IMG/VR virus record: IMGVR_UViG_3300037258_000279
Span: 1 to 64,000 of that record
Source: a virus
Length of the DNA: 64,000 nt
Strand: one strand, 5' to 3'
Shown here: positions 14,176-54,854 of the stretch, piece by piece
Layout: every line of letters begins with the position of its first letter
Numbering within the stretch: the stretch's first letter is position 1
Program-made: the position numbers and the translations under genes
Notes under the pieces: model-generated
Seen by the model: the letters and a program-made list of their open reading frames with translations, nothing else
Told to the model about the DNA's origin: nothing
Databases searched by the model: none

Positions 14176-14456
14176 AGGAATGGCAGGCGTACCCGCTCCG
14201 ATGGACGATTGGACCGCCAAAGTTTATTCCCGACCCCACGCATTGGGAGCCAATCAAAGAACGCGCGTAACTTTTATCTTGAAATAGCTTTACAGCGGCG
14301 CATCGGGTTCTTATATTTTCCCCTGGTGCGCCGTTTTTGCACCCGGAATCCCTCGGCATCCCCCTGCCCCGGAGGTTCCGCGTTTCCGACAGGCCGGCGC
14401 CGTTGCCCTCCGTGGCGGCGCCGGCCACTCTCGGGGGAGAAGGCAGGGGAGCCTCG

Positions 14457-37947: not shown

Positions 37948-38493
37948 TTAGCGCTCGAGCTCGGCCGACCAGTAAAGCCAATCGCCGAACGATTCTTTGA
38001 CGTCATTCGGCAGCAGCTCGAGCCCGGCCCGCAGCAACTCGCTGTGGGTCGGCTGCCGCGGGAGCGATAGCGGCTTCATCAAGTCGCCGTCCCTCTTCGC
38101 CAGATTGCATGGCGAGCACGACGTCAGGATGTTGTCCCAGGTCGTCTTGCCACCCCTGGCGCGCGGGTTAAGGTGATCGAACGTCAGATCCTGGCGCTCG
38201 AACCGCTCGCCGCAATATTGGCACCGGTAGCGATCGCGCAGATAGACCGACGCGCGGCAGAACTTCGGCTTGCCATGCACCGGCGCGAACTCGCGCAGCA
38301 TCACGACCTTCGGCACAGTGATCGTGGTCGACGGCGAGCGCAGTGCTTCCGGTCATTCGTCGATCGCGACGACGCGGTCCATGTAGATGGCGTGTACGGC
38401 GTCCTCGGCCGACCAGATGCTCAAGGGCCAGGTCGAGAGAGGTCTGGCGTCCGAATTGAGGACGAGACAGCGTCTTTGTAGGCCGGCGTTCAT
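37948..38493 (-). pseudogene. McrA-like HNH endonuclease with one in-frame TGA (38353-38355)
   Basis: LVLNSDARPLS..AIDE*PEALRSPS..VPKVV..RDRYRCQYCG..TFDH..GGKTTWDN..CSPCN.K in one frame. Confidence 0.82.
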
Positions 38494-38519: not shown

Positions 38520-38594
38520 TGGAGCCGGCGGAGGGAATCGAACCCGTCGTTGGGACGTTACGAATGTCCTGTCCTGCCACTGAACGACGCCGGC
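38520..38594 (-). tRNA. tRNA-Thr(CGU)
   Basis: cloverleaf, encoded CCA, loop UUCGUAA. Confidence 0.85.
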
Positions 38595-38599
38595 GATGG

Positions 38600-38673
38600 T
38601 GGTGGGCCTGCTCGGAATTGAACCGAGATCAACGCCTTAAAAGGGCGCAGCTTGACCTTCCAGCTACAGACCC
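38600..38673 (-). tRNA. tRNA-Lys(UUU)
   Basis: loop CUUUUAA, CCA. Confidence 0.8.
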
Positions 38674-38677
38674 GAAT

Positions 38678-38754
38678 TGGTGCGTCGCCTCGGATTCGAA
38701 CCGAGACTTGCCGGGATTTGAAGCCGGTGCTTCTGCCAATTGAGCGAGCGACGC
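38678..38754 (-). tRNA. tRNA-Leu(CAA), short variable arm
   Basis: loop UUCAAAU, CCA. Confidence 0.78.
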
Positions 38755-38758
38755 GAAA

Positions 38759-38833
38759 TGGTGGTCCCGCAAGGAATCGAACCTTGATCCCGAGATTCGG
38801 ATTCTCGGATGCTATCCGTTGCACTACGGAACC
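38759..38833 (-). tRNA. tRNA-Arg(CCG)
   Basis: loop AUCCGAA, CCA. Confidence 0.85.
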
Positions 38834-38910
38834 GGCACCGGTGACAGGAGTCGAACCTGCATCGTCCAGTTATGCACCGACCGCTTAGAAGGCGAGGCCA
38901 ATACACCGGC
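38834..38910 (-). ncRNA. D-armless tRNA-like RNA with UCU anticodon loop
   Basis: acceptor GCCGGUG/CACCGGU, T-arm GCAGG-UUCGACU-CCUGU, loop CUUCUAA, 7-nt linker in place of D-arm, 19-nt variable region, ends GCC. Confidence 0.65.
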
Positions 38911-38918
38911 AAAAAGTC

Positions 38919-38995
38919 TGGCGCACCCGGAGGGATTCGAACCCCCAACCTCTCGATCCGTAGTCGAGCGCTCGGTCCAGTCGAGCTGCGGGTGC
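38919..38995 (-). tRNA. tRNA-Arg(ACG)
   Basis: loop CUACGGA, CCA. Confidence 0.9.
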
Positions 38996-38999
38996 AATC

Positions 39000-39075
39000 T
39001 GGCGCCTCGTAGCGGATTCGAACCGCTGTCTCCGGAGTGAAGGTCCGGCCACCTAGCCGCTAGTAAGAACGAGGC
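39000..39075 (-). tRNA. tRNA-Glu(UUC)
   Basis: loop CCUUCAC (C33), CCA. Confidence 0.85.
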
Positions 39076-39079
39076 AATC

Positions 39080-39154
39080 TGGTAGGCGCGGGCGGGGTTG
39101 AACCGCCGACCTCCTGCGTGTCGAGCAAGCGATCTACCGCTGATCTACGCGCCC
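39080..39154 (-). tRNA. tRNA-Val(GAC)
   Basis: loop UCGACAC (C33), CCA. Confidence 0.85.
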
Positions 39155-39158
39155 AAGC

Positions 39159-39233
39159 TGGTACCCCGCGACGGGATCGAACCGCCGACATCCTCGGTGT
39201 AAACGAAGCGCTCTACCTCTGAGCTAGCGGGGC
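39159..39233 (-). tRNA. tRNA-Val(UAC)
   Basis: loop UUUACAC, CCA. Confidence 0.88.
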
Positions 39234-39238
39234 ATGTT

Positions 39239-39315
39239 TGGTCGGAGTGAGTGGATTCGAACCACCGGCCCCAGCGTCCCGAACGCTGTGCTCTGCCATG
39301 CTGAGCTACACTCCG
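39239..39315 (-). tRNA. tRNA-Pro(CGG)
   Basis: loop UUCGGGA, CCA. Confidence 0.9.
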
Positions 39316-39320
39316 TCATC

Positions 39321-39396
39321 TGGCGCTCTTGGTGAGGCTCGAACTCACAACCCCCGAACTAGGATTTCGGTGCTCGTCCGATCGAGCTGCAAGAGC
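39321..39396 (-). tRNA. tRNA-Arg(CCU)
   Basis: loop AUCCUAG, CCA. Confidence 0.85.
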
Positions 39397-39400
39397 AAAT

Positions 39401-39478
39401 TGGTGCGGGCGACAGGATTCGAACCTGCGACTTCCCGGTCCCAAACCGGGCGCTCTGGCCTGACTGAGCTACACCCAC
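39401..39478 (-). tRNA. tRNA-Pro(UGG)
   Basis: loop UUUGGGA, CCA. Confidence 0.85.
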
Positions 39479-39487
39479 GAACGAAAC

Positions 39488-39561
39488 TGGCGCTTCCAGT
39501 CGGGATCGAACCGGCGTTGACGGCGTGACAAGCCGCTCTCCTACCATTGGAGGATGGAAGC
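39488..39561 (-). tRNA. tRNA-Asp(GUC)
   Basis: loop UUGUCAC, CCA. Confidence 0.85.
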
Positions 39562-39570
39562 AAACGAATT

Positions 39571-39645
39571 TGGTGGGCTGCCAGGGACTCGAACCCTGAA
39601 CCTACGGATTAAGAGTCCGCTGCGCTACCATTGCGCCAGCAACCC
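39571..39645 (-). tRNA. tRNA-Lys(CUU)
   Basis: loop CUCUUAA, CCA. Confidence 0.9.
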
Positions 39646-39648
39646 GAT

Positions 39649-39724
39649 TGGTGGGCCAGTACGGGGTCGAACCGTCATCGGACGCTTATCAAGCGTCTGC
39701 TCGCAGCCGTTGAGCTACAGGCCC
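39649..39724 (-). tRNA. tRNA-Ile(GAU)
   Basis: loop UUGAUAA, CCA. Confidence 0.85.
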
Positions 39725-39725
39725 G

Positions 39726-39810
39726 TGGTGGGTCGGCGTGGTGTCGATCCACTCCCCCGCAGGGACGGGTTTTACAGACCCGCTGCCGGATCCGCCGGCT
39801 TTGCCTTCCC
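39726..39810 (-). tRNA. tRNA-Tyr(GUA)
   Basis: loop CUGUAAA, long variable arm, CCA. Confidence 0.8.
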
Positions 39811-39816
39811 GTGATC

Positions 39817-39891
39817 TGGTGCCCGGTGACGGATTTGAACCGCCGGCCTCTCCCTTACCGAGGGATTGCACTGCCGCTGTGCTAACCGGGC
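39817..39891 (-). tRNA. tRNA-Thr(GGU)
   Basis: loop UCGGUAA (C33), CCA. Confidence 0.85.
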
Positions 39892-39896
39892 ATACC

Positions 39897-39988
39897 TGGC
39901 GGTGCCGGAGGGATTCGAACCCTCGGGCCGGCTTTCACCGGCCAACGGTTTAGCAAACCGCCGCCTTCGGCCACTCGGCCACAGCACC
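39897..39988 (-). tRNA. tRNA-Ser(GCU)
   Basis: loop UUGCUAA, long variable arm, CCA. Confidence 0.9.
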
Positions 39989-39992
39989 ATGT

Positions 39993-40082
39993 TGGAGGAA
40001 CGTGATGGCATCGAACCATCAGCCGCTCGCGCGGCGCCCCGGGTTTCAGAGCCGGTGAAGGAGCCAACCTTCGGCACGTTCC
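39993..40082 (-). tRNA. tRNA-Ser(UGA), atypical D-arm
   Basis: loop UCUGAAA (C33), D-stem GAAGG/CCUUC, U discriminator, CCA. Confidence 0.75.
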
Positions 40083-40085
40083 AAT

Positions 40086-40173
40086 TGGCGGTTGGGGTGA
40101 GATTCGAACTCACGGTGCCCGTAGGCACTCCGGGTTTCGGGTCCGGCGCAATCGGCCACTCTGCCACCCAACC
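40086..40173 (-). tRNA. tRNA-Ser(CGA)
   Basis: loop CCCGAAA (C33), long variable arm, CCA. Confidence 0.82.
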
Positions 40174-40182
40174 AAACGAATC

Positions 40183-40272
40183 TGGCGGACGGTGAAGGAT
40201 TCGAACCTTCGGTGCCCAGAACGGGCACGCCGCGATTCCAACGCGGTGCAATCGCCACTCTGCCAACCGTCC
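40183..40272 (-). tRNA. tRNA-Ser(GGA)
   Basis: loop UUGGAAU, long variable arm, CCA. Confidence 0.88.
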
Positions 40273-40276
40273 GAAC

Positions 40277-40360
40277 TGGTGTCCCCGGGGAGAGTCGAAC
40301 TCCCACGCCGCGAGGCACAGGCACCTCAAGCCTGCGCGTCTACCATTCCGCCACGAGGAC
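40277..40360 (-). tRNA. tRNA-Leu(GAG)
   Basis: loop UUGAGGU, CCA. Confidence 0.9.
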
Positions 40361-40365
40361 AATTT

Positions 40366-40450
40366 TGGTGCGAGCCGGGAGAGTCGAACTCCCATGTCTT
40401 GCGACACTCGGTCCTGAGCCGAGCGCGTCTGCCTATTCCGCCAGGCTCGC
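40366..40450 (-). tRNA. tRNA-Leu(CAG)
   Basis: loop CUCAGGA, CCA. Confidence 0.9.
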
Positions 40451-40456
40451 GTGATC

Positions 40457-40532
40457 TGGTGCGGGCATCGGGAGTCGAACCCAATGGAAGCCAGGGTTTA
40501 GGCCCGGCCGCGTCACCGTGCGCCATGCCCGC
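40457..40532 (-). tRNA. tRNA-Leu(UAA), short variable arm
   Basis: loop CCUAAAC (C33), CCA. Confidence 0.72.
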
Positions 40533-40536
40533 ATAT

Positions 40537-40612
40537 TGGCGTCCCGCGGGGGAATTGAACCCGCCGTTTCCCGAGTGAGAGTCGGGGTTCCTGACCGCTA
40601 GAAGAGCGGGAC
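40537..40612 (-). tRNA. tRNA-Glu(CUC)
   Basis: loop CUCUCAC, CCA. Confidence 0.85.
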
Positions 40613-40617
40613 ATGGT

Positions 40618-40693
40618 TGGCTGCGGCGGAACGGATTCGAACCTTCGACCTGCGCGCTCAAAACGCGCTGCTCTACCGCTGAGCTACGCCGCA
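40618..40693 (-). tRNA. tRNA-Gln(UUG)
   Basis: loop UUUUGAG, CCA. Confidence 0.85.
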
Positions 40694-40699
40694 ACAAAT

Positions 40700-40773
40700 T
40701 GGCAGGGCGGCTCGGATTCGAACCGAGGCGAACGGAGTCAGAGTCCGTTATGCTGCCGTTACATCACCGCCCA
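40700..40773 (-). tRNA. tRNA-Gln(CUG)
   Basis: loop CUCUGAC, CCA. Confidence 0.88.
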
Positions 40774-40780
40774 TCAAAAC

Positions 40781-40855
40781 TGGTGCCGGTAGAGAGGATT
40801 GAACTCCCGACCTTCGCATTACAAATGCACTGCTCTGCCGCTGAGCTATACCGGC
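40781..40855 (-). tRNA. tRNA-Thr(UGU)
   Basis: loop UUUGUAA, CCA. Confidence 0.9.
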
Positions 40856-40932
40856 TGGGGTGAGTAGTGGGGATCGAACCCACGAATGATCGGTTCACAG
40901 CCGACCGCGTTAGCCACTTCGCCATACCCACC
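40856..40932 (-). tRNA. tRNA-His(GUG)
   Basis: loop CUGUGAA, G-1/C73, CCA. Confidence 0.88.
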
Positions 40933-40943
40933 ACGAAAATGCT

Positions 40944-41015
40944 ACCCGGTGGTCTTGCCTTGAAACGACGCCCCACGCGTGAGACGGACAGGTATCGAAA
41001 CCTGCATCACCGGGT
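40944..41015 (-). ncRNA. circularly permuted tRNA-like RNA (Y RNA/YrlA-like topology)
   Basis: ACCCGGUG, T-arm, loop-closed acceptor-like stem, D-arm with GG, CACCGGGU. Confidence 0.65.
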
Positions 41016-41020
41016 TCTTT

Positions 41021-41094
41021 TGGAGGTGCGCCGCGGAGTCGAACCGCGATTGCGGGATTTGCAGTCCCGAGCCTAGCCGTTCGGCCAGCGCACC
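41021..41094 (-). tRNA. tRNA-Cys(GCA)
   Basis: loop CUGCAAA, U73, CCA. Confidence 0.9.
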
Positions 41095-41098
41095 AATC

Positions 41099-41174
41099 TG
41101 GCACCGGGGGAGGGATTCGAACTCTCGACACGCGGTTTTGGAGACCGCTGCTCTAGCCACTGAGCTACCCCGGT
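41099..41174 (-). tRNA. tRNA-Trp(CCA)
   Basis: loop CUCCAAA, CCA. Confidence 0.9.
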
Positions 41175-41177
41175 AGA

Positions 41178-41771
41178 TCAATAAACTCCGTTCCTGCTGT
41201 CGGTGCGAAGCCATTTTCTGACGGCCGCTTCTGATACGCCATATCTCGCGGCGACTTTGACTCGAGATGCCCGCACCACCATTTCCCGAAGCCGCTTTCC
41301 TTCGGGTCTGTCCGGGACCTTAGCTTTAGCCTGAGACCGACATCGATTGCTGCAAAACTTTAAGCCGGCTCGCAAAGGGGCGCCGCACTTTTCGCATGCT
41401 GCCCCATCGTCACGCGGGAGGGTCGCAATGTTCCTTCTCGTGACGCGACCATTACGCATAGATAGCGGGATTGTTGCCTCGTCAAAGCGCCGAATATTGT
41501 CTGGGATTCTGGTGCTCCCCTCATGCACCTCGTCGTGGCAGTTGTGACATAGCATCACACATTTTCTTGCCTCGTCCGCGACCCGCTTCCATGATCGCGG
41601 GACACCGTTGGACGCCATGCTAAATTTTTTCTGCGCCGGCTCGACGTGATGGAACGTCAAGGCGCGCATCGACTTCGCGTAACCGCAAATTCCACAACGG
41701 CCGCCGAACGCGACGACGAGCTTTTCTTTCATTCGTTGCCGCCAACGAACGACCGCAGCGCCACCGCTCAT
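41178..41771 (-). CDS. HNH homing endonuclease inside the tRNA array
   Basis: start MSGGAA; CGICGY..ALTFHH..KCVMLCHNCHDEVH; CEKC..FCSNRC; C-terminal HTH YGVSEAAVRKW. Confidence 0.88.
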   Translation of the reverse strand: MSGGAAVVRWRQRMKEKLVVAFGGRCGICGYAKSMRALTFHHVEPAQKKFSMASNGVPRSWKRVADEARKCVMLCHNCHDEVHEGSTRIPDNIRRFDEATIPLSMRNGRVTRRNIATLPRDDGAACEKCGAPLRAGLKFCSNRCRSQAKAKVPDRPEGKRLREMVVRASRVKVAARYGVSEAAVRKWLRTDSRNGVY

Positions 41772-41773
41772 TT

Positions 41774-41848
41774 TGGCTCCCCGAGCTGGACTCGAACCAG
41801 CGACCTGCCGCTTAACAGGCGGTTGTTCTACCACTGAACTACCGGGGA
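41774..41848 (-). tRNA. tRNA-Asn(GUU)
   Basis: loop CUGUUAA, CCA. Confidence 0.9.
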
Positions 41849-41957
41849 AAAAACTGAAAGAGAGTTGCCGAAGCTCCCACTGCCCGGGCTTTTCCGCGCG
41901 GGTTCGCCACACGATTTCTCGCTGGCGTGGCCCCGACGGACGGCTGCCCGTGTCGGA

Positions 41958-42032
41958 TGGAGCGGGCGACGAGAATCGAACTCGCGACATTCTGCTTGGA
42001 AGGCAGAAGCTCTACCCCTGAGCTACACCCGC
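41958..42032 (-). tRNA. tRNA-Gly(UCC)
   Basis: loop CUUCCAA, CCA. Confidence 0.92.
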
Positions 42033-42106
42033 AATCTTGTGCTCGCCCCGGTCGGCGCTGTCGTGAACAGCATGGAGTGACTTGGCCACAACCGACCGGG
42101 ACGAAT

Positions 42107-42182
42107 TGGTGCCGAAGAGTGGAATCGAACCACTGACACCCACGCCTTCAACGTAGTGCTCTACCTGCTGAGCTACTTCGGC
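42107..42182 (-). tRNA. tRNA-Phe(GAA)
   Basis: loop UUGAAGG, CCA. Confidence 0.88.
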
Positions 42183-42418
42183 AAATTTCTCGGGGCTGGA
42201 TTTGTCATTCCTCCGTTCCTTGCTAGCAGGGGGAGTCGCAGATACCAGCATACAGGATTGCGGCACAGCCACCTTTAGGCTGGCGCTACCAGCCGCTGCG
42301 TCCTTGGTGTTTGGACGACCCGAGAATCTTCCGGCGACCGGACCAAGTTCTCATGCAGGAGATCCCGCCAAGGTCCGAACATTTGCATCATTGACGCCTT
42401 AGGGGCGTACCGCCGAGT

Positions 42419-42495
42419 TGGTTGCGCTGGCCGGCAATCGAAGCCGGCGACCTTCGGGTTATGGACCCGACGAGCTACCTCTGCTCCACAGCGCG
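42419..42495 (-). tRNA. tRNA-fMet(CAU)
   Basis: C1:A72 mismatch, GGG/CCC anticodon stem, loop UCCAUAA (C33). Confidence 0.85.
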
Positions 42496-42500
42496 TCAAA

Positions 42501-42576
42501 TGGTGGCAGGGGTGGGAGTCGAACCCGACGACCTGAGCGTTATGAGCGCACCGATCTACCGCTGATCTACCCTGCT
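42501..42576 (-). tRNA. tRNA-Met or Ile2 (CAU)
   Basis: loop CUCAUAA, CCA. Confidence 0.8.
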
Positions 42577-42583
42577 ATCGAAT

Positions 42584-42658
42584 TGGAGCGGGCAATGGGA
42601 GTCGAACCCACGACCTCAACCTTGGCAAGGTTGCGCTCTGCCCCTGAGCTATGCCCGC
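42584..42658 (-). tRNA. tRNA-Gly(GCC)
   Basis: loop UUGCCAA, CCA. Confidence 0.92.
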
Positions 42659-42662
42659 AAAT

Positions 42663-42738
42663 TGGTGGAGGTAGAGGGACTCGAACCCACGACATCCTGC
42701 TTGCAAAACAGGCGCTCTCCCAACTGAGCTATACCCCC
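42663..42738 (-). tRNA. tRNA-Ala(UGC)
   Basis: loop UUUGCAA, G3:U70, CCA. Confidence 0.92.
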
Positions 42739-42914
42739 GGAAAAAATCTGGCGCATCTGGCTTTCAAGGGACCACCGGATCGCCCGGCCGTCTTCCTAGT
42801 GGTGTGGCCCGGCGCACGCGGCGCCAGTTGTCCCGATGCAGAGCCGGGGAAGGTCGAACCAGACCTTGCTTGCCGGTGGTCTACAACCCCTACGCCTTCG
42901 ACAAACCAATAACG

Positions 42915-42950
42915 AAAAAACCTCCCGCGGTTTCCCGGGGAGGCTCTTCG
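42915..42950 (-). terminator. intrinsic terminator in the tRNA-operon leader (attenuator)
   Basis: CCUCCCCGG-GAAA-CCGCGGGAGG-UUUUUU. Confidence 0.85.
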
Positions 42951-42973
42951 ATCTTTCGATCTGATCCGAGTAT

Positions 42974-43111
42974 TTATTTCTCGGACGAAGCCTCCCTGCG
43001 GGCGGGTTGCCGCTGCGCGCTATTACCCATCGGGTGATGGATAAAGGACGTGCGCGACCACCCGAATGTTTCGGATAGTTTCGCTCGCAGATTTGAGGCC
43101 GTTAAGAGCAT
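42974..43111 (-). CDS. putative 45-aa leader peptide of the tRNA operon
   Basis: MLLTASNLRAKLSETFGWSRTSFIHHPMGNSAQRQPARREASSEK; ATG 7 nt after the -10 box; 3' end carries the antiterminator strand. Confidence 0.65.
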   Translation of the reverse strand: MLLTASNLRAKLSETFGWSRTSFIHHPMGNSAQRQPARREASSEK

Positions 43112-43118
43112 GGCGGGA

Positions 43119-43147
43119 AACCTAGTGTCTACCGACCGACTTGTAAA
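43119..43147 (-). promoter_or_regulatory. putative sigma70 promoter of the tRNA operon
   Basis: TTTACA-17 nt-TAGGTT. Confidence 0.7.
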
Positions 43148-43175
43148 GGGGGTTTCTCGCGATATTTTTTACGAA

Positions 43176-43601
43176 CTATTTCACGTTGGCGAAAAACATG
43201 GTGCTGCCTTGTTTCCCCGTCATTGTGGCACCTTGCGTCCATGCCGGCGCCGCGATGGTATCGGCGTAGAAATTGACGGCACCGCCGGTCGGATCCCCCT
43301 CGCCCGCCACCACCGCCGCCAAGACTTCATCGTAGGCTGCGAGCGCGTCGAGGATCACCGGATCGTCGGGTGCTTTCGCGGCCACGCGTTCGAGATTGGC
43401 ATTGTCTGCCGAATCCGCGTTCCATTCGCTGAACTGCATGCGCTTCAGACACACCGCCGCTGGCGTCGAGCCATAGCGCGCCGGATTGATCTGAGCACGA
43501 TTGAAGATCACCCAGACGATCCAGCGCCGTGCCGTTGGGTCATTCTCTTCGCATGCCGCCGTGATGGCGCACACGATGCGATCGGCAAAGCCCGTGTTCA
43601 T
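43176..43601 (-). CDS. SleB/Hydrolase_2-family cell wall hydrolase (endolysin)
   Basis: VI.NR, VCLKRMQFSEWN, DPTGGAVNFY, PAW. Confidence 0.85.
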   Translation of the reverse strand: MNTGFADRIVCAITAACEENDPTARRWIVWVIFNRAQINPARYGSTPAAVCLKRMQFSEWNADSADNANLERVAAKAPDDPVILDALAAYDEVLAAVVAGEGDPTGGAVNFYADTIAAPAWTQGATMTGKQGSTMFFANVK

Positions 43602-45419: not shown

Positions 45420-48400
45420 TTATGGATAAGGGTTCTGCGTGATCCCTTGAGCTTTTTGGGTCTTTTTCATTTCATAAGCGCGCGGGTCACTCATCTGCTC
45501 AACAGATTTTCTGATGGCCTCGATGATGTCAGAGGGCTTCTTAGCAAGCCCGGGATTCGCAATAACGAGACGCTTTGCTTGATCTGTCAGCTCGGCTGCC
45601 TCGTTGGCATCGCCGGCAATGCGCGCGCGGGCTGCTCGCGTGATAAGCAATGCCGCATCGCGCTCGACACGCTGACGCAGTTCATCGTTTTGATGTTCAA
45701 GCCGATAGGCGTAGTCGGACTGTGCGTATTCCTGTTCCTGTTGGAGCGGTTGGAAGCCAAGCGCCTGCTTGGCTATATCCGCGCCCGGCATGTCGGCAGG
45801 ACGGTCGAGCATAGTACCTTTTTGCGAAATTCGGCCTTGGTCGGATTCAAGCAATGCACGAGCCGGATTGCGAAGCGCCGATGGCAGAAGCTCCGCTGCG
45901 GCCGCGCCAGCACCCTGGGTCTGATCGCGCGTATAAGCGGCCTGCAACCGCTGATACAGCATCGAGGGAATGGTGCCAATGACATTGGTTGGGTCCATTT
46001 CTCTGGAGATGACATCGCCGAAACCGATTCGGCTCGAGAGATTTACACCTGCGAGCGAGGCGATTGGGCCACGTAGCATGACGTCGGCCCCGGCCTTTGA
46101 AAATCCGGCATCAGACATCATCTCGCGCAGATGGGCGTCCGTCATCGGATCGCTGCCCCCATTTAGCATGCGCCCCAGGGCATCAGCGGCGGACTCGGCG
46201 TCTTGCGTGAATGGAAGTCCATAGGCGCCAGCGCCGAGCATCAGAGTCCCCATCATCCAAGCAAACGCCGTCTTGCCTTCCGGGCCCATGTTTTTCATCA
46301 AACGAAAAGCCGTCGAGAGATAGCGCGTCTGAAAGCCGTGCAGCGAGAACAGGAGCGTTCCCATCGGGCCGCGCATTACGGGAGAACGGTTTTCGCTACC
46401 CCACTCGTAGGCACCTTCCGACAGCATGAACCGGGAGAAATTCTCCGGCGTCAAACCATCACGCTCAACCATATCGCGGAACAAGGCACTGTGTTCGGCG
46501 AGCGGCTTCGCCATCGCCGCCAGCGTTTTTGGATTGCTGGCGAGCCGGTAAGAAGACAGTGCGACAGCGGCACGATTGGCTTGGTCGACGATGCCGATAT
46601 TCGAGGTGGCAATATCCATGGCACGGCGAAACCGCCCCGCCGCATCGCCAAACGTCGAGGCTTGCCGTTCGCTCAACGCACGCAGATCGTCGGCACCGAG
46701 CGCACGCAAGCGCCCCTCATTAGCGAGAGATGAGATGAGGGCTTTTTCGTCGGGCGTGCGTCCCATTCGATCGAGATTGATGAAGAATCCATTCTTACGG
46801 TCAGCACCGGCGTGCCCATAAGCCTCGCGCAGCGCGCCAGCTAATGCGGCGCCGGCGCGCACCATGCCAATGCCGGTCGAGAGTACGGGAGCCGCTGCCA
46901 TCGGGGTATGCAGCGCGATTACCAGAGTCGACGATGGATTCATGGCGAGCGCGTAGGAAAACCCGATCTGAGCAGCATGCGTCGAGGCGCGCGAGAGAAT
47001 GCCTTTTTGGTCTTCCTGCGCCCCACGCCACTTTTGCCAATAGTCGCGCACGCTTTGATGCGGATGATTGTCTTGGATGTTATCGTAGGCTTCCTCCACG
47101 GCGTTATGATGCACCATGTTGGCCGCGTTGTGCGATACCTGCCAGATATGCGTGCCGATCGCGCGATCAAAATCCTGCGAATAACCCGGTGTGAGGTCGG
47201 CTCGGCGTTTGAAGCCAGCAGTCAGCGCCTCGTAGATCGAGTCCAGCAACGCTTCTTTCGCGGCACCCGTTGTTGCCCGATAGCGGTCCAATGCCTCGCC
47301 GCCGACGAGGCGTCCGGATTTATCGTATTGAGCAGCTTCGCCTTTCGCCTGCTTGGTTTGCGTTCGGGTAAGACCCTCCGGCGGAGTCTTTTCCTGCATG
47401 ATCTGCGAAATCATTTTGCCAGTGGCATCGCGTTCCATGAGCGCGAACAGTTTTTCGAGCGCCGGCATATCGATTTCGCGCAGGATGTCCGGCTTGCGGC
47501 GCAAATCTCCCGTTTCAATTATATGTGTCGGCGATTCCCATCGTCCCGGTCCGACGCGCTGGAAAGCACCAAATGCCGGCGCCCCTGTGTTATCTGGCAT
47601 TGTGCCAAGTGCGGCGATACGGTTTTTGACTGCGGCAATATCGTCGGCGTTCCGCCGCGTGGTGCCGAGCCAGTCTTCCATCGAGCTTTTCTCAACGGTT
47701 TCGAACCATTTCACCTCGGGATAACCGCCGAGCGATTCAGGGTCTTGACCTTGTTTCGGCCGCACGGCGACATAATAATCGCCAAAGCGCATGGCCGGAA
47801 AATAAGGGCGGTCCAACGCCCGCTGAGCCTCATGGAGCGCTGTCGCGAGGCGTGCCAGTCGATGGCCCTCCGGTGTACCGATACCTGCCTCGCGAGCCCC
47901 AGCGCTCACGGCGGCAGCAGTTAGATCGCCATTCCAGCCTTCGCGTTTCGCCATCGCCGACATGATGGTGCGCCAGCCTTCGTCACCTAGCCGCAAGCTA
48001 TCGTGAAACGCCTTTGTCTCTTGCGGTGATAGGAGATAGTCGTCACCAGGTTTTGACATGCGCGCTTGCCAGAACGACGTATTGTGCACGCGGATCGGCG
48101 CGCCATCATCGGGAGGGCGCCAGTTCCATTTTCGGGCAAGTTCGAGCGCCGCATAGACGCGATTTCGCGACGGCGAATCGAGGCTCACCAGCGAATCAGC
48201 GACAATTTTCCGTAGATTATTGCCATTTCGTGCCGCCTCATCGTCACGGGCGCGCCACGCATTCCAAAAGCGTGCCGACATATCATCCAGCGTTGCGAGC
48301 GTTCGCGGGAAGATCGAGAATCGCTCTACCGGATTAAGATTTTTGATCTGTCGCGTACCACGTCGAGCAAGTTCCGGAAGTGCCCGTTCCTCGGTCGTCG

Positions 48401-51400
48401 GTCCTTTACCGGAAGGTGCTCCGGGTGATCCCGATACTGAATCGATCAGTCCGGAAACCGCGTCGCGGTGGAGAGCCTCTTCCGGTGTCAGCCGTTGTTC
48501 TGGCGAAGTATTTCGTTCCGCTGCAAAATCGGGGCGGTCTTCGGCTAGACCGGCGACTGCTCCTTGCGCTTCGCCAGTTCCTGCTCGGCTCTCGATCGTT
48601 CCCGCTTCACGTCCGGATCGTCCTGCGGCAGGTTGTCTAATTCCTTCAGAAAGTCTTGCCATGCTTTCGTCGGGGCGAATGGTGTCGGCGGATCGATCAG
48701 ACCGTGCATTGGCATCCTCTCTAGGCTTAGCATCAAAAAATGTCTGGGCAGCTCGCTGCACCCTGTCAGCTGCCTCCCGAATGATGTCACGAGCACCCGG
48801 CACGTCGGCCAGATCGCGTGACGACATGTAATCAATCACACCGCCGGAATCCAGTGCCCGATTAATCAGGTCGGAATAAATGGAGTCCGCGTGTTCTTGT
48901 GTAATCTCCGCCGAATTAACAAGACGGTCTAGCCCACGAAAGACGGCATTTTCCGCAGTGGCATAGAGGCCGCCGATTGCTCGCTCGGCGTCCCCCTGAC
49001 TTCCCAACCATTCCTTGGCTTCCGGCGTCAACTGGGCGACATAGGTGTTTCCATCATGGCCGTGAGCAACGATAGTTCGAAGGCCCGGAAAGGCCAGCTG
49101 TCGCATGTCCTGTTCACTCAGGGAATTACCCAACGGGTGGTTGTGATGGACCACCATCGTACTGGACTGATCCTCAAGGCGCCCCACGAGGTCTGGTGTA
49201 AAAGCGACGTATTTCGGCGATGCCATCGTGTAGGCATGAGTCAGTTCACCGCGGTCCTGATCGATCGCAGCCAAATGTTCATGGCCAGAGTTTTGTCCGT
49301 GATAGATGGTCCAGTTGCGCGCGGCGGTATGCGGATCGCCGGTCTGAGCGAAATCATCACGCAGGTCTGTGATGGCCGCACCGACGGGTGCCTCTTTGTC
49401 GTTGCCCTCGAACAGCGCCTGCCCTCGCATGACGCTTTCGCGCATCTTCGGGGTGATCTCGACGGAGTGGACCAATTTATTCGCTGGACCAGAAGCAAAA
49501 TCTCGTGCGCCTCTTTCCGTGTTAAATTCCCGATAATCATACTGGTCGCCCGGCATGTATGCGATCCATGTACCTTCTGAGTCCTGCGTAACTTTATACG
49601 GGCGCTGCTGCGCATTGATTTCGGAATCCTCGGCCTTCGCGCCCCACTTCTTGCTAAGGCTGTTCACGATCTGCGGCAATTGACGATCATAGAACGCCAC
49701 CATGCCAGCACTGCCAACCTTCAGATCATCACCGCGCAGCGTTCCAGCGCCTTCCGGCTCGCCGTGGTCGCGGCCAACATTATCGACGATCTTTTTGGCG
49801 GCATCCTTGCCGACGATGTCCTCAAGCTGTTGCGGCGTGAGATCGCGGCGACCGAGCACTTCCTCGAAATCACCGGAGCGAGGACTGCCGCGCTTCCTGG
49901 CGCTGATCGTGTAGCGTCCGTCATCTTGCTTCGCGTATCTGATCTCGTCGATTTGTTTGCTCAGGTCGTACCGGTCCGCGTTCGTCGCGCCGGTATCCCA
50001 GGACAATTTTTGGTAGCCGTTTTCGGCGGCGTATCTGAGCAAACGCTTAACCGCAAGCTCCGGCCATGAGGTTTTGAAGGGAGCGTCCGGGACTAGATCG
50101 CCAGCCTCTGCCGCGTAGGCTGCATTGCGTTCACGTTGCAGCTCCTGGTTCCTCGCCAGCAGATCTGGGTGCCTCTGCCAGGACGCCATTAGCGCAGCAT
50201 CGCTGTGAAGGTATTTCGCCTCGGCGCGGATTTTCGCTTCGTCTTCGTTCGCGGCATCTACTTCGTAGCGATGTCCGGTGCGGGCATCCGTAACAACCCA
50301 CTCTCCAAGCTCGTAGCCGTGAGTTTTGTTGACCCCAACCTTTTCTGCCAAAAGCTGCGGCGCGTCGCGGCGTTCAAGTTCCATCAAGACGCCATCCATA
50401 TCATCGTCAATTTCGCTGACTGAGCGCCCTTTGTGTTGCCCCCGATACCCGCGCTTTCTTCCGGCCTGATGGAGATCGCTCTGAATCTCCGCGACGTGCA
50501 GCACCCTCTCGCCGTTCGGCCCAGTGCGATCGTCAAAACGGACATGCGCCAGGACGTTCGGCTCTTGCCAGTGACCTGAGCGGTAATCCTGCCGTTCAGC
50601 ACCGCGCCGATTGCGCGCGAGCATCTGCGCTGTGTTGGCGATAACGGCCTCGTCGTCCGAAACGGAGTCATGCGTGATGGCGACGACCTCACCCTTCGCG
50701 TCCAGCACCTCGGCGCCATCCGGCCCCTTGTCACGGACCGTCCAGCCGGTTGTATCAATTTTTGGCTCGCGCTGCGGCATCGTGAGTAGAAGTTCGCGGT
50801 AATTCTCGCCACCAGGAAGACGGTAGTGGCCGTACTTTGCCGGGGCGCCGCTGAGTCCTTGGCGCGCCATTGTCTCGTCAACCATGCGACCGTGTAGCGC
50901 TTCGCGCTCTGCTGAAAGGCGGCCGCCCTCGTGGCGCAGGTCAGATGCGCGCTGCGTATCGTTGGCGTAGTGTGCGCTGCGCTCTTCGGTATCGACATCG
51001 TGAATGCGGCGGTTCAAATCCTCAAACGCTGCGGCATGTTCTTGTTGCGCCCGCGCATCTGGCACGGTTTCGTCTCGCACTGGGCCGTGCATCACCTCCT
51101 GCACTTGGACATTGTTCTCGCGAACGGCTTGGAGCAGATCAGCCTTCGTCACCGCGCCCTTTTTGCTGTCCAAGAAATCGTTCACGCCCGTCCAATCGAC
51201 TTCCTCTTTTTTGATCCCCGGCATGTTGCGGATCATGCCCTTCCAGGATTCAGGCGAGGCTTTGTCTAGCTTGGCGTTCTCGATGCCGCGTTCAAGCGCC
51301 GAGTAAAAGATTGGCGATGCTTCGGCCAATCCGCGCCGTGTTGGCGGCTCTCCAAAAGGCAATTCCGCCGTATTGTCTATGGGCTTGAACAATCCCTCAT

Positions 51401-54400
51401 CGGCGTCTTTTTGCTGAACACGGGACCGGATGCGCCCACGCCCTTCCGCTTCGCGCGATGAGGCCGCCTGGCGCGCCGATTGTTCGGCGCCAGGAAGGAC
51501 TACTTGTTCTCCGGCTGCGGTTGATTCTGTTGCCGGCTCGCGCCCAATGCCTTCACCGCGGACTTGATCGCCGCGAGTTGCGATCGCACCAGATTCTTCA
51601 CGACGCGTCTGCGCTGCTGATTGAGCGGCTGATTCTGCAAATCGCGGAGTCGTTTCAGGCGCTCGCGACTGTGGTTCAGGTGTTGCTGAGCTTCGTTCAT
51701 CGTCACCAATCCAGGGAATATCTTCTGCCGCAGCCACGGCGTCAATATCGCGCTCAATCTGGGCTCGGACTGTATCCGAATGAGCACCATCCGCGATGAT
51801 TGCCTCACGCTCATGAATCATGGCGAGAAGATCGTCATTATGGGGATGGCTGGCCGGATCGATGCCCAGCGCTGAAGCGCGCGCTTCTAACTCGTTGTGA
51901 TAAGGATTGCCCTCGTAGGCGCGTTTATGGTCTTCCCAATCCCGTAGTGCGCCAACATCGTCGGCGGAATAGCGCGCATTGCCGCGGAGCGTGTCATCGA
52001 TCGCACTGTAGAGATCGCTAATGGTCGAATCGCTGGGCCGATTTGGATTATCGCGCGGGAGATACCCGGCTTCCTGGGCGATTTCGCGCGCGTGGTCGTC
52101 GTTCATTCCGCGCCCGTCTTTGCGCACCAGCATGCCGTATCCCGGAATGAATTTCTTATGTGCATCCATCGCGCGCAATTCGCCGGAAGGGTTAAGACCG
52201 CCGCGCGACGCCAGAAACTCCACGATGTTCATGGGACGCCGGGGGGCGTTCTCTCTTGAAGAAGGTGGCGTTGTTGCTGTCTCGGCAGCAACCGGTTTGG
52301 TGGTGTCGCCCTCTTTCAGCCAGGTCTTCAGCTCATCGAGCGACATCGGCGTGACATTCCCGATGCGCTGTTCGCCTTTGCCATCGGAAAATGCCCCGAC
52401 ATAAGCTTGGTGCGCGCCCTGCCAGTCATTGAAGCCAAGCATAACTTTAGCTTCGTCGTAAGCGCCTGACGCCGGATCGATTTGGTCTATAACAAAAGCG
52501 CGCTGGCTATCATGGTTCGGCCCCATATAGGCATCCACATGTTCGCCGTCGGCAGCTTCGGTTTTTGATATGTAGCCGTAGTCGCTTGGAAGCTGTGCTG
52601 TCCAAGGTTGACCATCGGCACCGACACCATGACGTACTGAGCCTTCCGGGTTTTCCATGACGAACGGAATCCCATGAAATGAGACGCGGCCCTTGGAATA
52701 ATTCCCAGAATCAATTTGTCCTGGCGTGGGATTTGTTTCGGTTGTCGCGCGCGCCTGATCGATCTGCTGCGCGATTTCTTCCGGCGTGCGAGTACCGCGC
52801 GTCAGGGGTAGTTCGCCTTCAGGTCCAGGAGGCGACGGGGAAGGGGCCGCACCCCCCACCGGTAACGGCGCCGACTTGTCCGGTGCCTCCTGGATTGCTG
52901 GCGGCTGGTTGATTTTTAAGTCAACCGGTGATGCCACAATAGGTTGATCCGGCGCCGCCGCTTGCGCTGGCTGGGGCTCTACCGGTTGTGCCTGACGGCG
53001 CGCCGCGATTTGATTCAGATCTTCGGCATATTGCCCGGCCGCTTCGGGTGTCGGGACGATCTGGCCAGGGTGAGTCGTCTTCGTCGCTTCCGCCTGCTGG
53101 ATGATATCCTGTGGCGTGACCGGCGGCTGTGGTTGGGCCTGCGCCTCGAGTTGCGCCTTCGCCGCAGTCAGGCGTGCCTCAACCGGGGCGGCTGGCTGCC
53201 CGCGCGCGGCGGCCGCCGCGCTGGTCGCCTCGCCCTTAAGCGCGTCGAGCGCCGGGGATTGAGGCTTCGGTATCGGTATTGGTACCAATGGGGCAGGCCC
53301 GCTCGGCGGACCGCTTTCTGGAGAACCTCGATACCTTGAGACGGCATAGGCATTAATGCTGTACTGGTTGCCGCTTGGATCGCCCAATATCACATCGTGC
53401 GCGGGGGTAAATCCCTGCACCTGCATCGGGATAACGTCATTACCGACCGGCATCGGGATCATTTCGCCAATCTTAGGCGTTCCTAGACCACCACGGACAG
53501 ATGGTGCGGGCTGCGATTCCGCGGCGATGGCGGGCGGCGGCGGCGCTGGTGGTGGCGGATTAACGCTCGCTGCCGCTGCTTCTGGGGTCGGATGTCGAGC
53601 ATCTGTCACGATCCCGTCGGGGCCGCGTAATCCCCAAAGTCCCGTGGCCGGATCAAGCGCCACATCCGGTTTTTCAGTCGGCGCTGTTTCGGGAGGGCCA
53701 TGCGCGCGGTCCGATCCTGGAATATTGCCTGGTGGTGGAGGCCCAGGTGTCGATCTCAATGCGTGCGCGATACCGGCATGGACAATTGCGGGCGCGGCAG
53801 TCCCAACCACCGCGCCCGGAACGCCTGACAAGACGTCTTGGCCGATCGGCTTGCCTTCGGCGACATTCTCGACCGCTTTCTGACCGACTGCCACGGCAGG
53901 CTGCAACCCGAACGCCTGAAAGACGGCGTCTTTCAGCACATTCTTGAACGGTGCGAAACCGAATAATCCATAGGACACGCCAGCGGCGCCGGATTCGATG
54001 CCGGTGCGCTTCAAGGCCAAACTCCATGCCGCTTCGTTGTCGCCCTTGGTTTCCTGCAATGCCTGGCCGAAATTCACGCCAAGACTCTGAATCGTGTTAC
54101 CTGCCGCAGCGCCAGCCGCGGTGCCGGCGATGCCTGTCGCCCACGAAATCGGGTCTTCAGGGCCACCACCCAGAGCAATACCGGCCAACCCGCCGCCGTA
54201 AGCCGCTGCCGCCGTCGGCGCCGCGGCGGCAAACTGATAGAGCGTCTTTTTCAGCAACGTAAGCGGCTTCCACAGATCACTCCCCTCGATCGGCTGCGCG
54301 GCCAGAAGATCTGGCTCCTGCACGTCCGGTTTTCCCCCCGTCACGGCTTGGCCGGTTTGCATGACGCTCCGGCCAGCCTGAAAAAGACCGGCGATGGGGG

Positions 54401-54854
54401 CGCCCAGCAAGCCCGTGTCGCGCAGCGCTGGCTGAAGACCCGCCGCGGTATAGTCGATCGGCGGCGGGGCGGTCTGTCCGGTCTTCGTTTCTTTCGTCTC
54501 GACCGCCGGCGCTTCCTTGGTGCGCATCAGACCGTTCGGCGTCTGGACGAAACTTCCCGGCGCTAATGCGCCGATCTGGGCAGCATAATCTTCCTGCGAA
54601 AGTCCCTGGGTTGGAACAAAGGGTTTATCTCGCGTCCATTGCGCCGGCGTAGGTGGTTCATCCAAGAATTTAGCACCCGAAGGCAGCGGTGGAAGTCCGG
54701 GCGTTGCCGCTTGCGGTTCAATGAAACTTGCGCCTTTGGGAAGCGGTGGGAGAGTTGGTTCCTGATCGGCAACCGGAATGGCACCTGCTGGCAGCGGCGG
54801 AAGGTCGCCTGATCCAGAATCAGGTATAGACGAATTGTCAAGCGGCGCTGCCAT
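45420..54854 (-). CDS. large polyvalent virion/ejection protein (PPase-like, LPD-like, JAB-like, PLxRFG domains)
   Basis: GNY.KG..ENP.GS.R..DYGYI..DGEHVD..DE.KVMLGF; LPGGENYRELL..EIQSD; HHNHP..SLS..D; YFPAMRFGDY. Confidence 0.88.
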   Translation of the reverse strand: MAAPLDNSSIPDSGSGDLPPLPAGAIPVADQEPTLPPLPKGASFIEPQAATPGLPPLPSGAKFLDEPPTPAQWTRDKPFVPTQGLSQEDYAAQIGALAPGSFVQTPNGLMRTKEAPAVETKETKTGQTAPPPIDYTAAGLQPALRDTGLLGAPIAGLFQAGRSVMQTGQAVTGGKPDVQEPDLLAAQPIEGSDLWKPLTLLKKTLYQFAAAAPTAAAAYGGGLAGIALGGGPEDPISWATGIAGTAAGAAAGNTIQSLGVNFGQALQETKGDNEAAWSLALKRTGIESGAAGVSYGLFGFAPFKNVLKDAVFQAFGLQPAVAVGQKAVENVAEGKPIGQDVLSGVPGAVVGTAAPAIVHAGIAHALRSTPGPPPPGNIPGSDRAHGPPETAPTEKPDVALDPATGLWGLRGPDGIVTDARHPTPEAAAASVNPPPPAPPPPAIAAESQPAPSVRGGLGTPKIGEMIPMPVGNDVIPMQVQGFTPAHDVILGDPSGNQYSINAYAVSRYRGSPESGPPSGPAPLVPIPIPKPQSPALDALKGEATSAAAAARGQPAAPVEARLTAAKAQLEAQAQPQPPVTPQDIIQQAEATKTTHPGQIVPTPEAAGQYAEDLNQIAARRQAQPVEPQPAQAAAPDQPIVASPVDLKINQPPAIQEAPDKSAPLPVGGAAPSPSPPGPEGELPLTRGTRTPEEIAQQIDQARATTETNPTPGQIDSGNYSKGRVSFHGIPFVMENPEGSVRHGVGADGQPWTAQLPSDYGYISKTEAADGEHVDAYMGPNHDSQRAFVIDQIDPASGAYDEAKVMLGFNDWQGAHQAYVGAFSDGKGEQRIGNVTPMSLDELKTWLKEGDTTKPVAAETATTPPSSRENAPRRPMNIVEFLASRGGLNPSGELRAMDAHKKFIPGYGMLVRKDGRGMNDDHAREIAQEAGYLPRDNPNRPSDSTISDLYSAIDDTLRGNARYSADDVGALRDWEDHKRAYEGNPYHNELEARASALGIDPASHPHNDDLLAMIHEREAIIADGAHSDTVRAQIERDIDAVAAAEDIPWIGDDERSSATPEPQSRAPETTPRFAESAAQSAAQTRREESGAIATRGDQVRGEGIGREPATESTAAGEQVVLPGAEQSARQAASSREAEGRGRIRSRVQQKDADEGLFKPIDNTAELPFGEPPTRRGLAEASPIFYSALERGIENAKLDKASPESWKGMIRNMPGIKKEEVDWTGVNDFLDSKKGAVTKADLLQAVRENNVQVQEVMHGPVRDETVPDARAQQEHAAAFEDLNRRIHDVDTEERSAHYANDTQRASDLRHEGGRLSAEREALHGRMVDETMARQGLSGAPAKYGHYRLPGGENYRELLLTMPQREPKIDTTGWTVRDKGPDGAEVLDAKGEVVAITHDSVSDDEAVIANTAQMLARNRRGAERQDYRSGHWQEPNVLAHVRFDDRTGPNGERVLHVAEIQSDLHQAGRKRGYRGQHKGRSVSEIDDDMDGVLMELERRDAPQLLAEKVGVNKTHGYELGEWVVTDARTGHRYEVDAANEDEAKIRAEAKYLHSDAALMASWQRHPDLLARNQELQRERNAAYAAEAGDLVPDAPFKTSWPELAVKRLLRYAAENGYQKLSWDTGATNADRYDLSKQIDEIRYAKQDDGRYTISARKRGSPRSGDFEEVLGRRDLTPQQLEDIVGKDAAKKIVDNVGRDHGEPEGAGTLRGDDLKVGSAGMVAFYDRQLPQIVNSLSKKWGAKAEDSEINAQQRPYKVTQDSEGTWIAYMPGDQYDYREFNTERGARDFASGPANKLVHSVEITPKMRESVMRGQALFEGNDKEAPVGAAITDLRDDFAQTGDPHTAARNWTIYHGQNSGHEHLAAIDQDRGELTHAYTMASPKYVAFTPDLVGRLEDQSSTMVVHHNHPLGNSLSEQDMRQLAFPGLRTIVAHGHDGNTYVAQLTPEAKEWLGSQGDAERAIGGLYATAENAVFRGLDRLVNSAEITQEHADSIYSDLINRALDSGGVIDYMSSRDLADVPGARDIIREAADRVQRAAQTFFDAKPREDANARSDRSADTIRPDESMARLSEGIRQPAAGRSGREAGTIESRAGTGEAQGAVAGLAEDRPDFAAERNTSPEQRLTPEEALHRDAVSGLIDSVSGSPGAPSGKGPTTEERALPELARRGTRQIKNLNPVERFSIFPRTLATLDDMSARFWNAWRARDDEAARNGNNLRKIVADSLVSLDSPSRNRVYAALELARKWNWRPPDDGAPIRVHNTSFWQARMSKPGDDYLLSPQETKAFHDSLRLGDEGWRTIMSAMAKREGWNGDLTAAAVSAGAREAGIGTPEGHRLARLATALHEAQRALDRPYFPAMRFGDYYVAVRPKQGQDPESLGGYPEVKWFETVEKSSMEDWLGTTRRNADDIAAVKNRIAALGTMPDNTGAPAFGAFQRVGPGRWESPTHIIETGDLRRKPDILREIDMPALEKLFALMERDATGKMISQIMQEKTPPEGLTRTQTKQAKGEAAQYDKSGRLVGGEALDRYRATTGAAKEALLDSIYEALTAGFKRRADLTPGYSQDFDRAIGTHIWQVSHNAANMVHHNAVEEAYDNIQDNHPHQSVRDYWQKWRGAQEDQKGILSRASTHAAQIGFSYALAMNPSSTLVIALHTPMAAAPVLSTGIGMVRAGAALAGALREAYGHAGADRKNGFFINLDRMGRTPDEKALISSLANEGRLRALGADDLRALSERQASTFGDAAGRFRRAMDIATSNIGIVDQANRAAVALSSYRLASNPKTLAAMAKPLAEHSALFRDMVERDGLTPENFSRFMLSEGAYEWGSENRSPVMRGPMGTLLFSLHGFQTRYLSTAFRLMKNMGPEGKTAFAWMMGTLMLGAGAYGLPFTQDAESAADALGRMLNGGSDPMTDAHLREMMSDAGFSKAGADVMLRGPIASLAGVNLSSRIGFGDVISREMDPTNVIGTIPSMLYQRLQAAYTRDQTQGAGAAAAELLPSALRNPARALLESDQGRISQKGTMLDRPADMPGADIAKQALGFQPLQQEQEYAQSDYAYRLEHQNDELRQRVERDAALLITRAARARIAGDANEAAELTDQAKRLVIANPGLAKKPSDIIEAIRKSVEQMSDPRAYEMKKTQKAQGITQNPYP
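48545..48709 (-). CDS. putative nested out-of-frame gene (54 aa)
   Basis: GAGAGGA RBS; MHGLIDPPTPFAPTKAWQDFLKELDNLPQDDPDVKRERSRAEQELAKRKEQSPV. Confidence 0.5.
   Translation of the reverse strand: MHGLIDPPTPFAPTKAWQDFLKELDNLPQDDPDVKRERSRAEQELAKRKEQSPV

Follow-up and report, generated by a model that had tools for sequence, protein, structure and literature searches.

How the large tRNA arrays carried by some phages are switched on is poorly described, and the question arises at a locus where a promoter candidate, a boxA-like motif, a four-way RNA junction, and an intrinsic terminator all lie within 235 nt, directly ahead of 35 phage tRNA genes. Because the element is this small and self-contained, competing models of its function could be separated with a few point mutants. 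Were a conditional terminator to lie between a late operon and a nearly complete set of tRNAs, tRNA supply would be coupled to the transcription-translation state of the host, a kind of control that is relevant to codon-usage takeover and to the escape from tRNA-cleaving defences. If any of the gated readings discussed below is true, the element would represent a variation on known antitermination or attenuation control, acting on a phage tRNA array. Full-text literature searches retrieved no paper on boxA in connection with phage tRNA genes and none on leader-peptide attenuation of a tRNA operon.

Genomic context of the tRNA array

The element is located in the IMG/VR phage record IMGVR_UViG_3300037258_000279, a 93,664-bp genome of an uncultured phage with direct terminal repeats that is rated complete and has a GC content of 60.8%. 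The window analysed here comprises the first 64 kb (64,000 nucleotides) of this record. On the minus strand, a late structural-lysis block of 47 kb runs from the small and large terminase, portal, and head genes through the genes of a 1499-aa and a 3144-aa protein to a Hydrolase_2 hydrolase. The 1499-aa protein has no Pfam match and, in a tblastn search against phage records, no match in cultured phages. Residues 712-847 of the 3144-aa protein of the virion block (45420-54854, minus) correspond to an InPase domain (PF18823).

A 437-nt intergenic stretch, which holds the element under study, separates the hydrolase gene from the tRNA array (Table 1). The tRNA block spans 4.2 kb, is untranslated except for one embedded HNH-like ORF, and is unique in the phage as a long non-coding transcription unit; the last tRNA is followed by further minus-strand genes, with no terminator between them. 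A clear HNH gene is located just past the array, at 37948-38316 (minus). Within the array, a gap that is empty in the ARAGORN predictions contains a tRNA-Sec-like Rfam match (39997-40082, minus; 37.9 bits, i.e., below the gathering score), which may represent an extra long-arm tRNA.

Table 1. Features of the region between the late genes and the tRNA array, in minus-strand order
Feature	Coordinates	Strand	Basis or remark
Cell-wall hydrolase (endolysin-like), last late structural-lysis gene	43176..43601	minus	Pfam Hydrolase_2 PF07486, E = 2e-9
Sigma-70-like promoter candidate TTTACA-17-TAGGTT	43119..43147	minus	TTTACA 43147-43142, 17-nt spacer, TAGGTT 43124-43119
45-codon ORF (P0001)	42974..43111	minus	ATG 43111-43109, TAA 42976-42974
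boxA-like motif UGCUCUUAAC	43101..43110	minus	overlaps ATG 43111-43109
Four-way-junction RNA domain; 12-bp P1 with AAA bulge closing three hairpins	42989..43100	minus	MFE and centroid folds
Switch segment GGGAGGCUUCG	42986..42996	minus	3' strand of P1, or partner of terminator 5' arm
Two small hairpins; UAA stop codon in the loop of one, the other GAUC-GAAA-GAUC	42950..42986	minus	fold
Intrinsic terminator: GC-rich hairpin, GAAA loop, then U6	42915..42950	minus	fold and T-run/hairpin scan
174-nt spacer, terminator to tRNA-Ala	42739..42914	minus	fold ordinary, z = 0.37
Array of 35 tRNA genes with embedded HNH-like ORF	38520..42738	minus	ARAGORN, Rfam
HNH-like endonuclease ORF within the tRNA array, GGAG ribosome-binding site	41178-41771	minus	marginal Pfam HNH match

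A structured RNA ending in an intrinsic terminator

The RNA fold is clearly the best-supported feature of the element and its strongest signal. The leader RNA of ~200 nt has a minimum free energy (MFE) of -91 kcal/mol, corresponding to z = -5.1 and, in a re-run, to z = -6.5 on the minus strand, compared with -3.7 antisense; it is the most extreme among the genome windows sampled (66 random 200-nt windows, mean z -0.14, sd 1.3). From 5' to 3', the fold comprises an unpaired 18-nt tail, a junction domain closed by helix P1, two small hairpins, and the terminator, with the junction domain alone reaching z = -5.4 vs -3.4 for its antisense. Within the region 42730-43180, Rfam contains no matching family at E values up to 10, the sole match being a chance RNAI terminator-like one (E = 3.2). 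A tRNA-like cloverleaf was dropped upon inspection by eye, as P4 carries a 4-nt loop and no T-loop is present. A T-box was dropped as well, given the lack of an Rfam match and of a UGGN bulge in the antiterminator (by eye).

The terminator hairpin (42943-42921) consists of a 9-bp stem with one bulge, has a free energy of -16.5 kcal/mol, and is followed directly by U6 at 42920-42915, an arrangement of GC-rich hairpin and U tract that is diagnostic of intrinsic terminators. The stem can be extended by the upstream AAGAG. The original prediction had placed a U6 terminator ahead of all the tRNAs, and it indeed precedes each of the 35, at a position 225 nt past the last late gene. An automated promoter/terminator scan called neither the promoter candidate nor this hairpin, the latter omission being attributed to the bulge in the stem. 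In a hairpin-plus-T-run scan, it is one of only four clean terminators on the minus strand, with no other found from about 90.8 kb to 43.2 kb.

The stretch upstream of the terminator can pair in more than one way. The switch segment GGGAGGCUUCG (42996-42986), described in the original prediction as complementary to the terminator 5' arm, does have its complement there (CGAAGAGCCUCCC at 42950-42938, minus). The resulting 2:3 duplex has a free energy of -18.4 to -20.6 kcal/mol and is moderately beyond chance (P = 0.012-0.03, dinucleotide shuffles). In pairing 1:2, GGCCUC..CUGCGAG (codons 4-9 of the 45-codon ORF) is bound to CGCAGGGAGGCU (codons 38-41); pairing 3:4 is the terminator itself, while pairing 2:3 is the proposed antiterminator, and the three compete with one another. 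A structure with the antiterminator forced lies 6-8 kcal/mol above the terminator state, and in thermodynamic models the antiterminator wins only with about the first 35 nt masked. The element is a functional structured RNA that ends in a real terminator, directly ahead of the tRNA array, and is equipped with switch wiring. The folded leader probably gates transcription of the tRNA genes.

One possible gate is suggested by the architecture of P1, whose 3' strand (43000-42989) overlaps the antiterminator segment by 8 nt. In a riboswitch-like attenuator, the P1-closed four-way junction would sense a small molecule, a protein, or an RNA, and the 3' strand of P1 would double as the antiterminator. 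OFF-type transcriptional riboswitches likewise contain a P1-closed junction with a P1 3' strand that competes with the terminator, and the stability of the junction domain on its own is in agreement with such a role. The element differs from them in matching no Rfam class and in the high stability of its P1, a GC-rich helix of 12 bp that gives way to the antiterminator only upon masking of the 5' end. Ligand-dependent P1 helices are much less stable. Together with the absence of homologues usable for covariation analysis in the collections searched, these differences make a riboswitch very unlikely.

The position of the hairpin is also compatible with a plain operon end, in which the hairpin and U6 terminate the late structural-lysis operon and the tRNA genes are transcribed from a promoter that goes unrecognised in the 174-nt spacer. 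The folded 190 nt would then act as a 3'-UTR stabiliser or as a separate small RNA, and the boxA match described below and the alternative pairing would both be due to chance. In favour of this explanation, the terminator follows the last late gene by 225 nt and closes a series of co-directional genes in which no second clean terminator was found. Moreover, in the Caulobacter phage CcrColossus (L010, JX100810.1 53478-71619), all three tRNA blocks are preceded by an annotated rho-independent terminator, ~230 to ~800 nt upstream; therefore, a terminator ahead of tRNA genes is ordinary in itself. A plain operon end leaves unexplained, however, the extreme fold, the uniqueness and accessibility of the boxA-like motif, and the 2:3 complementarity, and scans of the spacer revealed no promoter-like site. 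Altogether, a plain operon end appears somewhat unlikely, albeit a serious contender.

The 45-codon reading frame

According to the original prediction, the element could be a leader-peptide attenuator that senses the tRNA pool. Its sequence elements, i.e., a minus-strand promoter TTTACA-17-TAGGTT, an ATG 7 nt later, and a 45-codon ORF, are all found where it located them, and the codon count bears out that the first 20 codons are all different and that 34 of the 45 are distinct. In such an attenuator, a leaderless mRNA would start from the A of the ATG, which requires transcription to begin at 43111; an early stall of the ribosome would mask segment 1 and release segment 2 for pairing with segment 3, leading to read-through, whereas smooth translation to the stop codon would result in termination. 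In favour of this model, 7 nt separate the -10 element from the ATG, which puts its A where the +1 purine is expected, and the 18 nt at the 5' end are unpaired. All three pairings (1:2, 2:3, and 3:4) are present, and the stop codon falls between segments 2 and 3, an arrangement with a probability of about 0.10 given the ATG. In a ribosome-masking model, the MFE structure flips to the antiterminator with the P site at codons 5-12, and at no other codons.

The codon content of the ORF is mildly unusual, as noticed post hoc. The number of distinct codons has a probability of 0.13 among composition-matched random codons and of 0.01-0.02 among the ORFs of the genome, i.e., it belongs to the top 1-2% of these ORFs. 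The first repeated codon occurs at codon 21, and a repeat that appears no earlier than this has a probability of about 0.02. The codon diversity is weakly beyond chance.

Translation of the ORF, which the original prediction presupposed, finds no positive support. No Shine-Dalgarno sequence precedes the ATG, while among 97 crude gene calls one is present in no fewer than 37, vs a background of 9%. The codon-usage score of -0.035 per codon is similar to those of non-coding small ORFs, and only the bottom 4% of true-gene windows reach values this low; the GC content by codon position (0.51/0.56/0.67) also looks non-coding, in comparison to the typical ~0.65/0.47/0.75 of long, likely-real ORFs. 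The length of the ORF is unremarkable, as the probability of an open frame of at least 45 codons after an ATG amounts to 0.29 in leader shuffles. No homologue of the encoded peptide (P0001) was found, and the peptide is absent from a protein collection that lists the neighbouring hydrolase. A small lysis protein was considered for the peptide and dropped, as it contains no hydrophobic segment.

The claimed trp/his-type attenuation geometry holds in part: the three mutually exclusive pairings exist, while clustered regulatory codons are missing from the ORF and the three very stable hairpins inside it have no role in the scheme. As in the trpL, hisL, thrL, and pheL attenuators, an ORF overlaps segments 1 and 2 of three exclusive pairings upstream of an intrinsic terminator. 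The putative leader ORF differs from these in a start that would be leaderless, in lacking a Shine-Dalgarno sequence and a run of regulatory codons, in its length of 45 codons, and in the three extra hairpins; the genes controlled are tRNA genes rather than an amino-acid operon. Classical leader peptides comprise ~14-32 codons. The idea that loss of almost any tRNA would be sensed conflicts with the masking model: a ribosome whose P site is at codons 15-46 lets P1 form again and leaves both pairing 1:2 and the terminator in place, so that about 8-10 codons at most could be monitored. Besides, codons 1-3 double as the boxA-like motif, which provides another reason for their sequence. On this evidence, leader-peptide attenuation is unlikely, and the 45-codon ORF is probably incidental.

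A boxA-like motif in the unpaired 5' tail

The 5' tail of the predicted RNA reads A-UGCUCUUAAC, and the same nucleotides form codons 1-3 of the ORF (A-UGCUCUUA), with the motif beginning at the second base from the predicted start site. The boxA of rrn operons is UGCUCUUUA and that of lambda is CGCUCUUA (PMC2724277). The motif has the same first base as the rrn boxA and the GCUCUUA core of the lambda boxA; relative to the rrn boxA, one U is missing. The pattern [TC]GCTCTT(T)AAC occurs just once in the 93.7 kb of the genome. By chance, [TC]GCTCTT(T)A would be matched within the 437-nt intergenic stretch with a probability of 0.0086, a post hoc value for a motif that was spotted by eye. The motif is single-stranded, with a probability of being unpaired of 0.96 vs a mean of 0.32 for the whole RNA, and is located in the leader upstream of the 35 tRNA genes, as is characteristic of boxA elements.

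The match is imperfect in several respects. The motif misfits GYTCTTTAANA (PMC5725501), a gamma-proteobacterial boxA consensus that may not be that of the host. Neither boxB nor boxC is present: no hairpin follows within ~10 nt of the motif, and no boxB-like hairpin is found at the lambda spacing. A leader-trailer helix of the rrn style is not above shuffled sequences (P = 0.19-0.31).

The explanation that we tentatively prefer, and regard as possible rather than probable, is an untranslated leader of the boxA type, whose conditional terminator would be bypassed by Nus-modified polymerase. The untranslated, tightly folded RNA of ~200 nt would constitute a conditional stop at the junction of the late block and the tRNA array. 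Its unpaired 5' tail would offer the boxA-like site to the NusB/NusE(S10) dimer of the host, and polymerase that acquires an antitermination complex of the Nus type there would be expected to pass the intrinsic terminator, as well as any stops due to Rho, and to continue into the 4.2-kb tRNA block; polymerase lacking the modification would halt at 42915-42920. The 45-codon ORF would be a by-product of GC-rich structured sequence. The fold, the terminator, the position, and the boxA-like match with its uniqueness and accessibility are shown by the sequence analysis, whereas binding of Nus factors, passage through the terminator, and the place where transcription starts are inferred. A complex of Nus factors and SuhB nucleated by boxA suppresses both intrinsic and Rho-dependent termination in vitro (PMC6614801), which provides a precedent for the bypass of an intrinsic terminator.

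The boxA-type leader is favoured by the extreme fold, by a motif that is both unique and accessible, and by its location at the head of the only long non-coding unit of the phage. The absence of other clean minus-strand terminators along the late block and of a promoter-like site between the terminator and the first tRNA gene also agrees with it, as does the parallel at an IMG/VR locus described below. What processive antitermination does not explain is the 2:3 alternative pairing. The shortened motif, its deviation from the gamma-proteobacterial consensus, the lack of a boxB-like hairpin and of a leader-trailer helix, the weakness of the promoter candidate, and the post hoc nature of the P value count against it as well.

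Compared with the boxA antitermination systems of rrn operons and the lambda nut sites (NusB/NusE, NusA, NusG, SuhB), the element shares a boxA-like 8-mer in an unpaired leader at the 5' end of a long unit of stable RNA, as well as a downstream terminator that could be bypassed by a modified polymerase; the order of promoter, nut site, and terminator is that of lambda. In contrast to these systems, the motif lacks the additional U of the rrn boxA, no boxB, boxC, or leader-trailer helix accompanies it, and ~190 nt of structure and an intrinsic terminator precede the RNA genes, which are phage tRNAs and not rRNA. The put RNAs of phage HK022, two stem-loops of about 65-70 nt, offer another comparison: like them, the leader is a phage-encoded folded RNA between a promoter and a terminator that could act on the transcribing polymerase. 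The leader differs from put in its four-way junction plus two hairpins, and it has no sequence or Rfam similarity to put.

Should the transcript start at the AUG, which overlaps the boxA-like motif, the antitermination and translation models might also be combined. Leaderless loading of a ribosome and binding of NusB-S10 would then compete for the 5' tail, and slow progress of a ribosome through about the first twelve codons would release the antiterminator, thereby turning on the 35 tRNA genes. Such a translation-sensing gate is decidedly unlikely; if true, it would be a sensor of the tRNA pool or of translation capacity, useful against anticodon-nuclease defences.

The promoter candidate and the spacer

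The promoter candidate upstream of the boxA-like motif is weak. It agrees with the consensus at 8 of 12 positions, and 164 sites across the genome reach 8 or more. On the other hand, it is one of only two TT[GT]ACN-N16-18-TANNNT sites genome-wide, both of which are intergenic. The TAGGTT hexamer is followed by a GC-rich discriminator of 7 nt (TCCCGCC, 43118-43112), and an A6 tract is located at 43170-43165. A GC-rich discriminator and an A-tract upstream of the -35 element are traits of stable-RNA promoters in E. coli; the resemblance of the candidate to them may be taken as weak evidence for a promoter of this type.

Matches to E. coli-type promoters lie mostly in coding DNA and do not separate intergenic from coding sequence in this genome; a real promoter could therefore go unseen, which favours the plain operon end insofar as the tRNA genes might have a start site of their own in the spacer. 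No sigma-70-like site matching at least 7 of 12 positions is found within the 174-nt spacer. The spacer ends in a T6 run directly before tRNA-Ala. A repeated phage promoter motif was sought by k-mers and by scans with E. coli-type and Caulobacter-type consensus sequences, which yielded nothing convincing, the matches lying mostly inside coding DNA.

Two sites elsewhere in the genome stand out in these scans. The only other TTTACA-17-TAnnnT site (TTTACA-17-TATATT; 14289-14340, plus strand) is located inside a 12-bp perfect hairpin followed by T5, i.e., promoter-like and terminator-like signals overlap there. In a divergent intergenic region, TTGACCA-N14-GCTAGATC occurs at 7353-7389 (plus strand). 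It fits the Caulobacter-type sigma-70 consensus and might hint at an alphaproteobacterial host, with the scan being too noisy to trust.

Relatives and comparable arrays

The collections searched contain no relative usable for a conservation check of the element, which also limits the case for a boxA-type leader. A blastn search against 50,697 phage records retrieved matches to the tRNAs only, and the leader alone had no match at E values up to 1. Searches of IMG/VR with the hydrolase, a neighbouring 230-aa protein, and the terminase returned either no relative or no syntenic locus, and neither a terminator pattern nor a tRNA-Ala/tRNA-Gly junction pattern had any match in IMG/VR. The tRNA-Ala/tRNA-Gly junction pattern gave three irrelevant matches in JGI metagenomes. 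Alignment of the hydrolase led to nine IMG/VR loci with 41-51% identity, none of them with tRNAs or the leader. The closest relative (P0003), located on a 73-kb Logan contig, has a hydrolase 66% identical to that of the phage (alignment A1).

The rrn-type 14-mer TGCTCTTTAACAAT was surveyed in IMG/VR for an association with tRNA genes. Only 1 of 119 sites has tRNAs downstream on the same strand, vs 0-2 in control orientations; hence, there is no general enrichment of boxA ahead of tRNAs in this survey, a point against the boxA-type leader. A single locus nevertheless provides a clear parallel (L023; IMGVR_UViG_3300025736_000014, 1050-1534, minus). It consists of a TTGACA-18-TATACT promoter and a leader of ~170 nt, followed by TGCTCTTTAACAATTTA, which is identical to the E. 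coli rrn boxA plus spacer and is located 22 nt before at least six tRNA genes (His, Gly, Thr, Asn, Asp, and Ala). Therefore, phage tRNA arrays with boxA leaders do exist.

In the tRNA blocks of the phages DSS3_MAL1, RcXuper, and CcrColossus, a search for boxA upstream gave scattered matches only. In CcrColossus, the motif TGTTCTTGA occurs between tRNA-Gln and tRNA-Asn.
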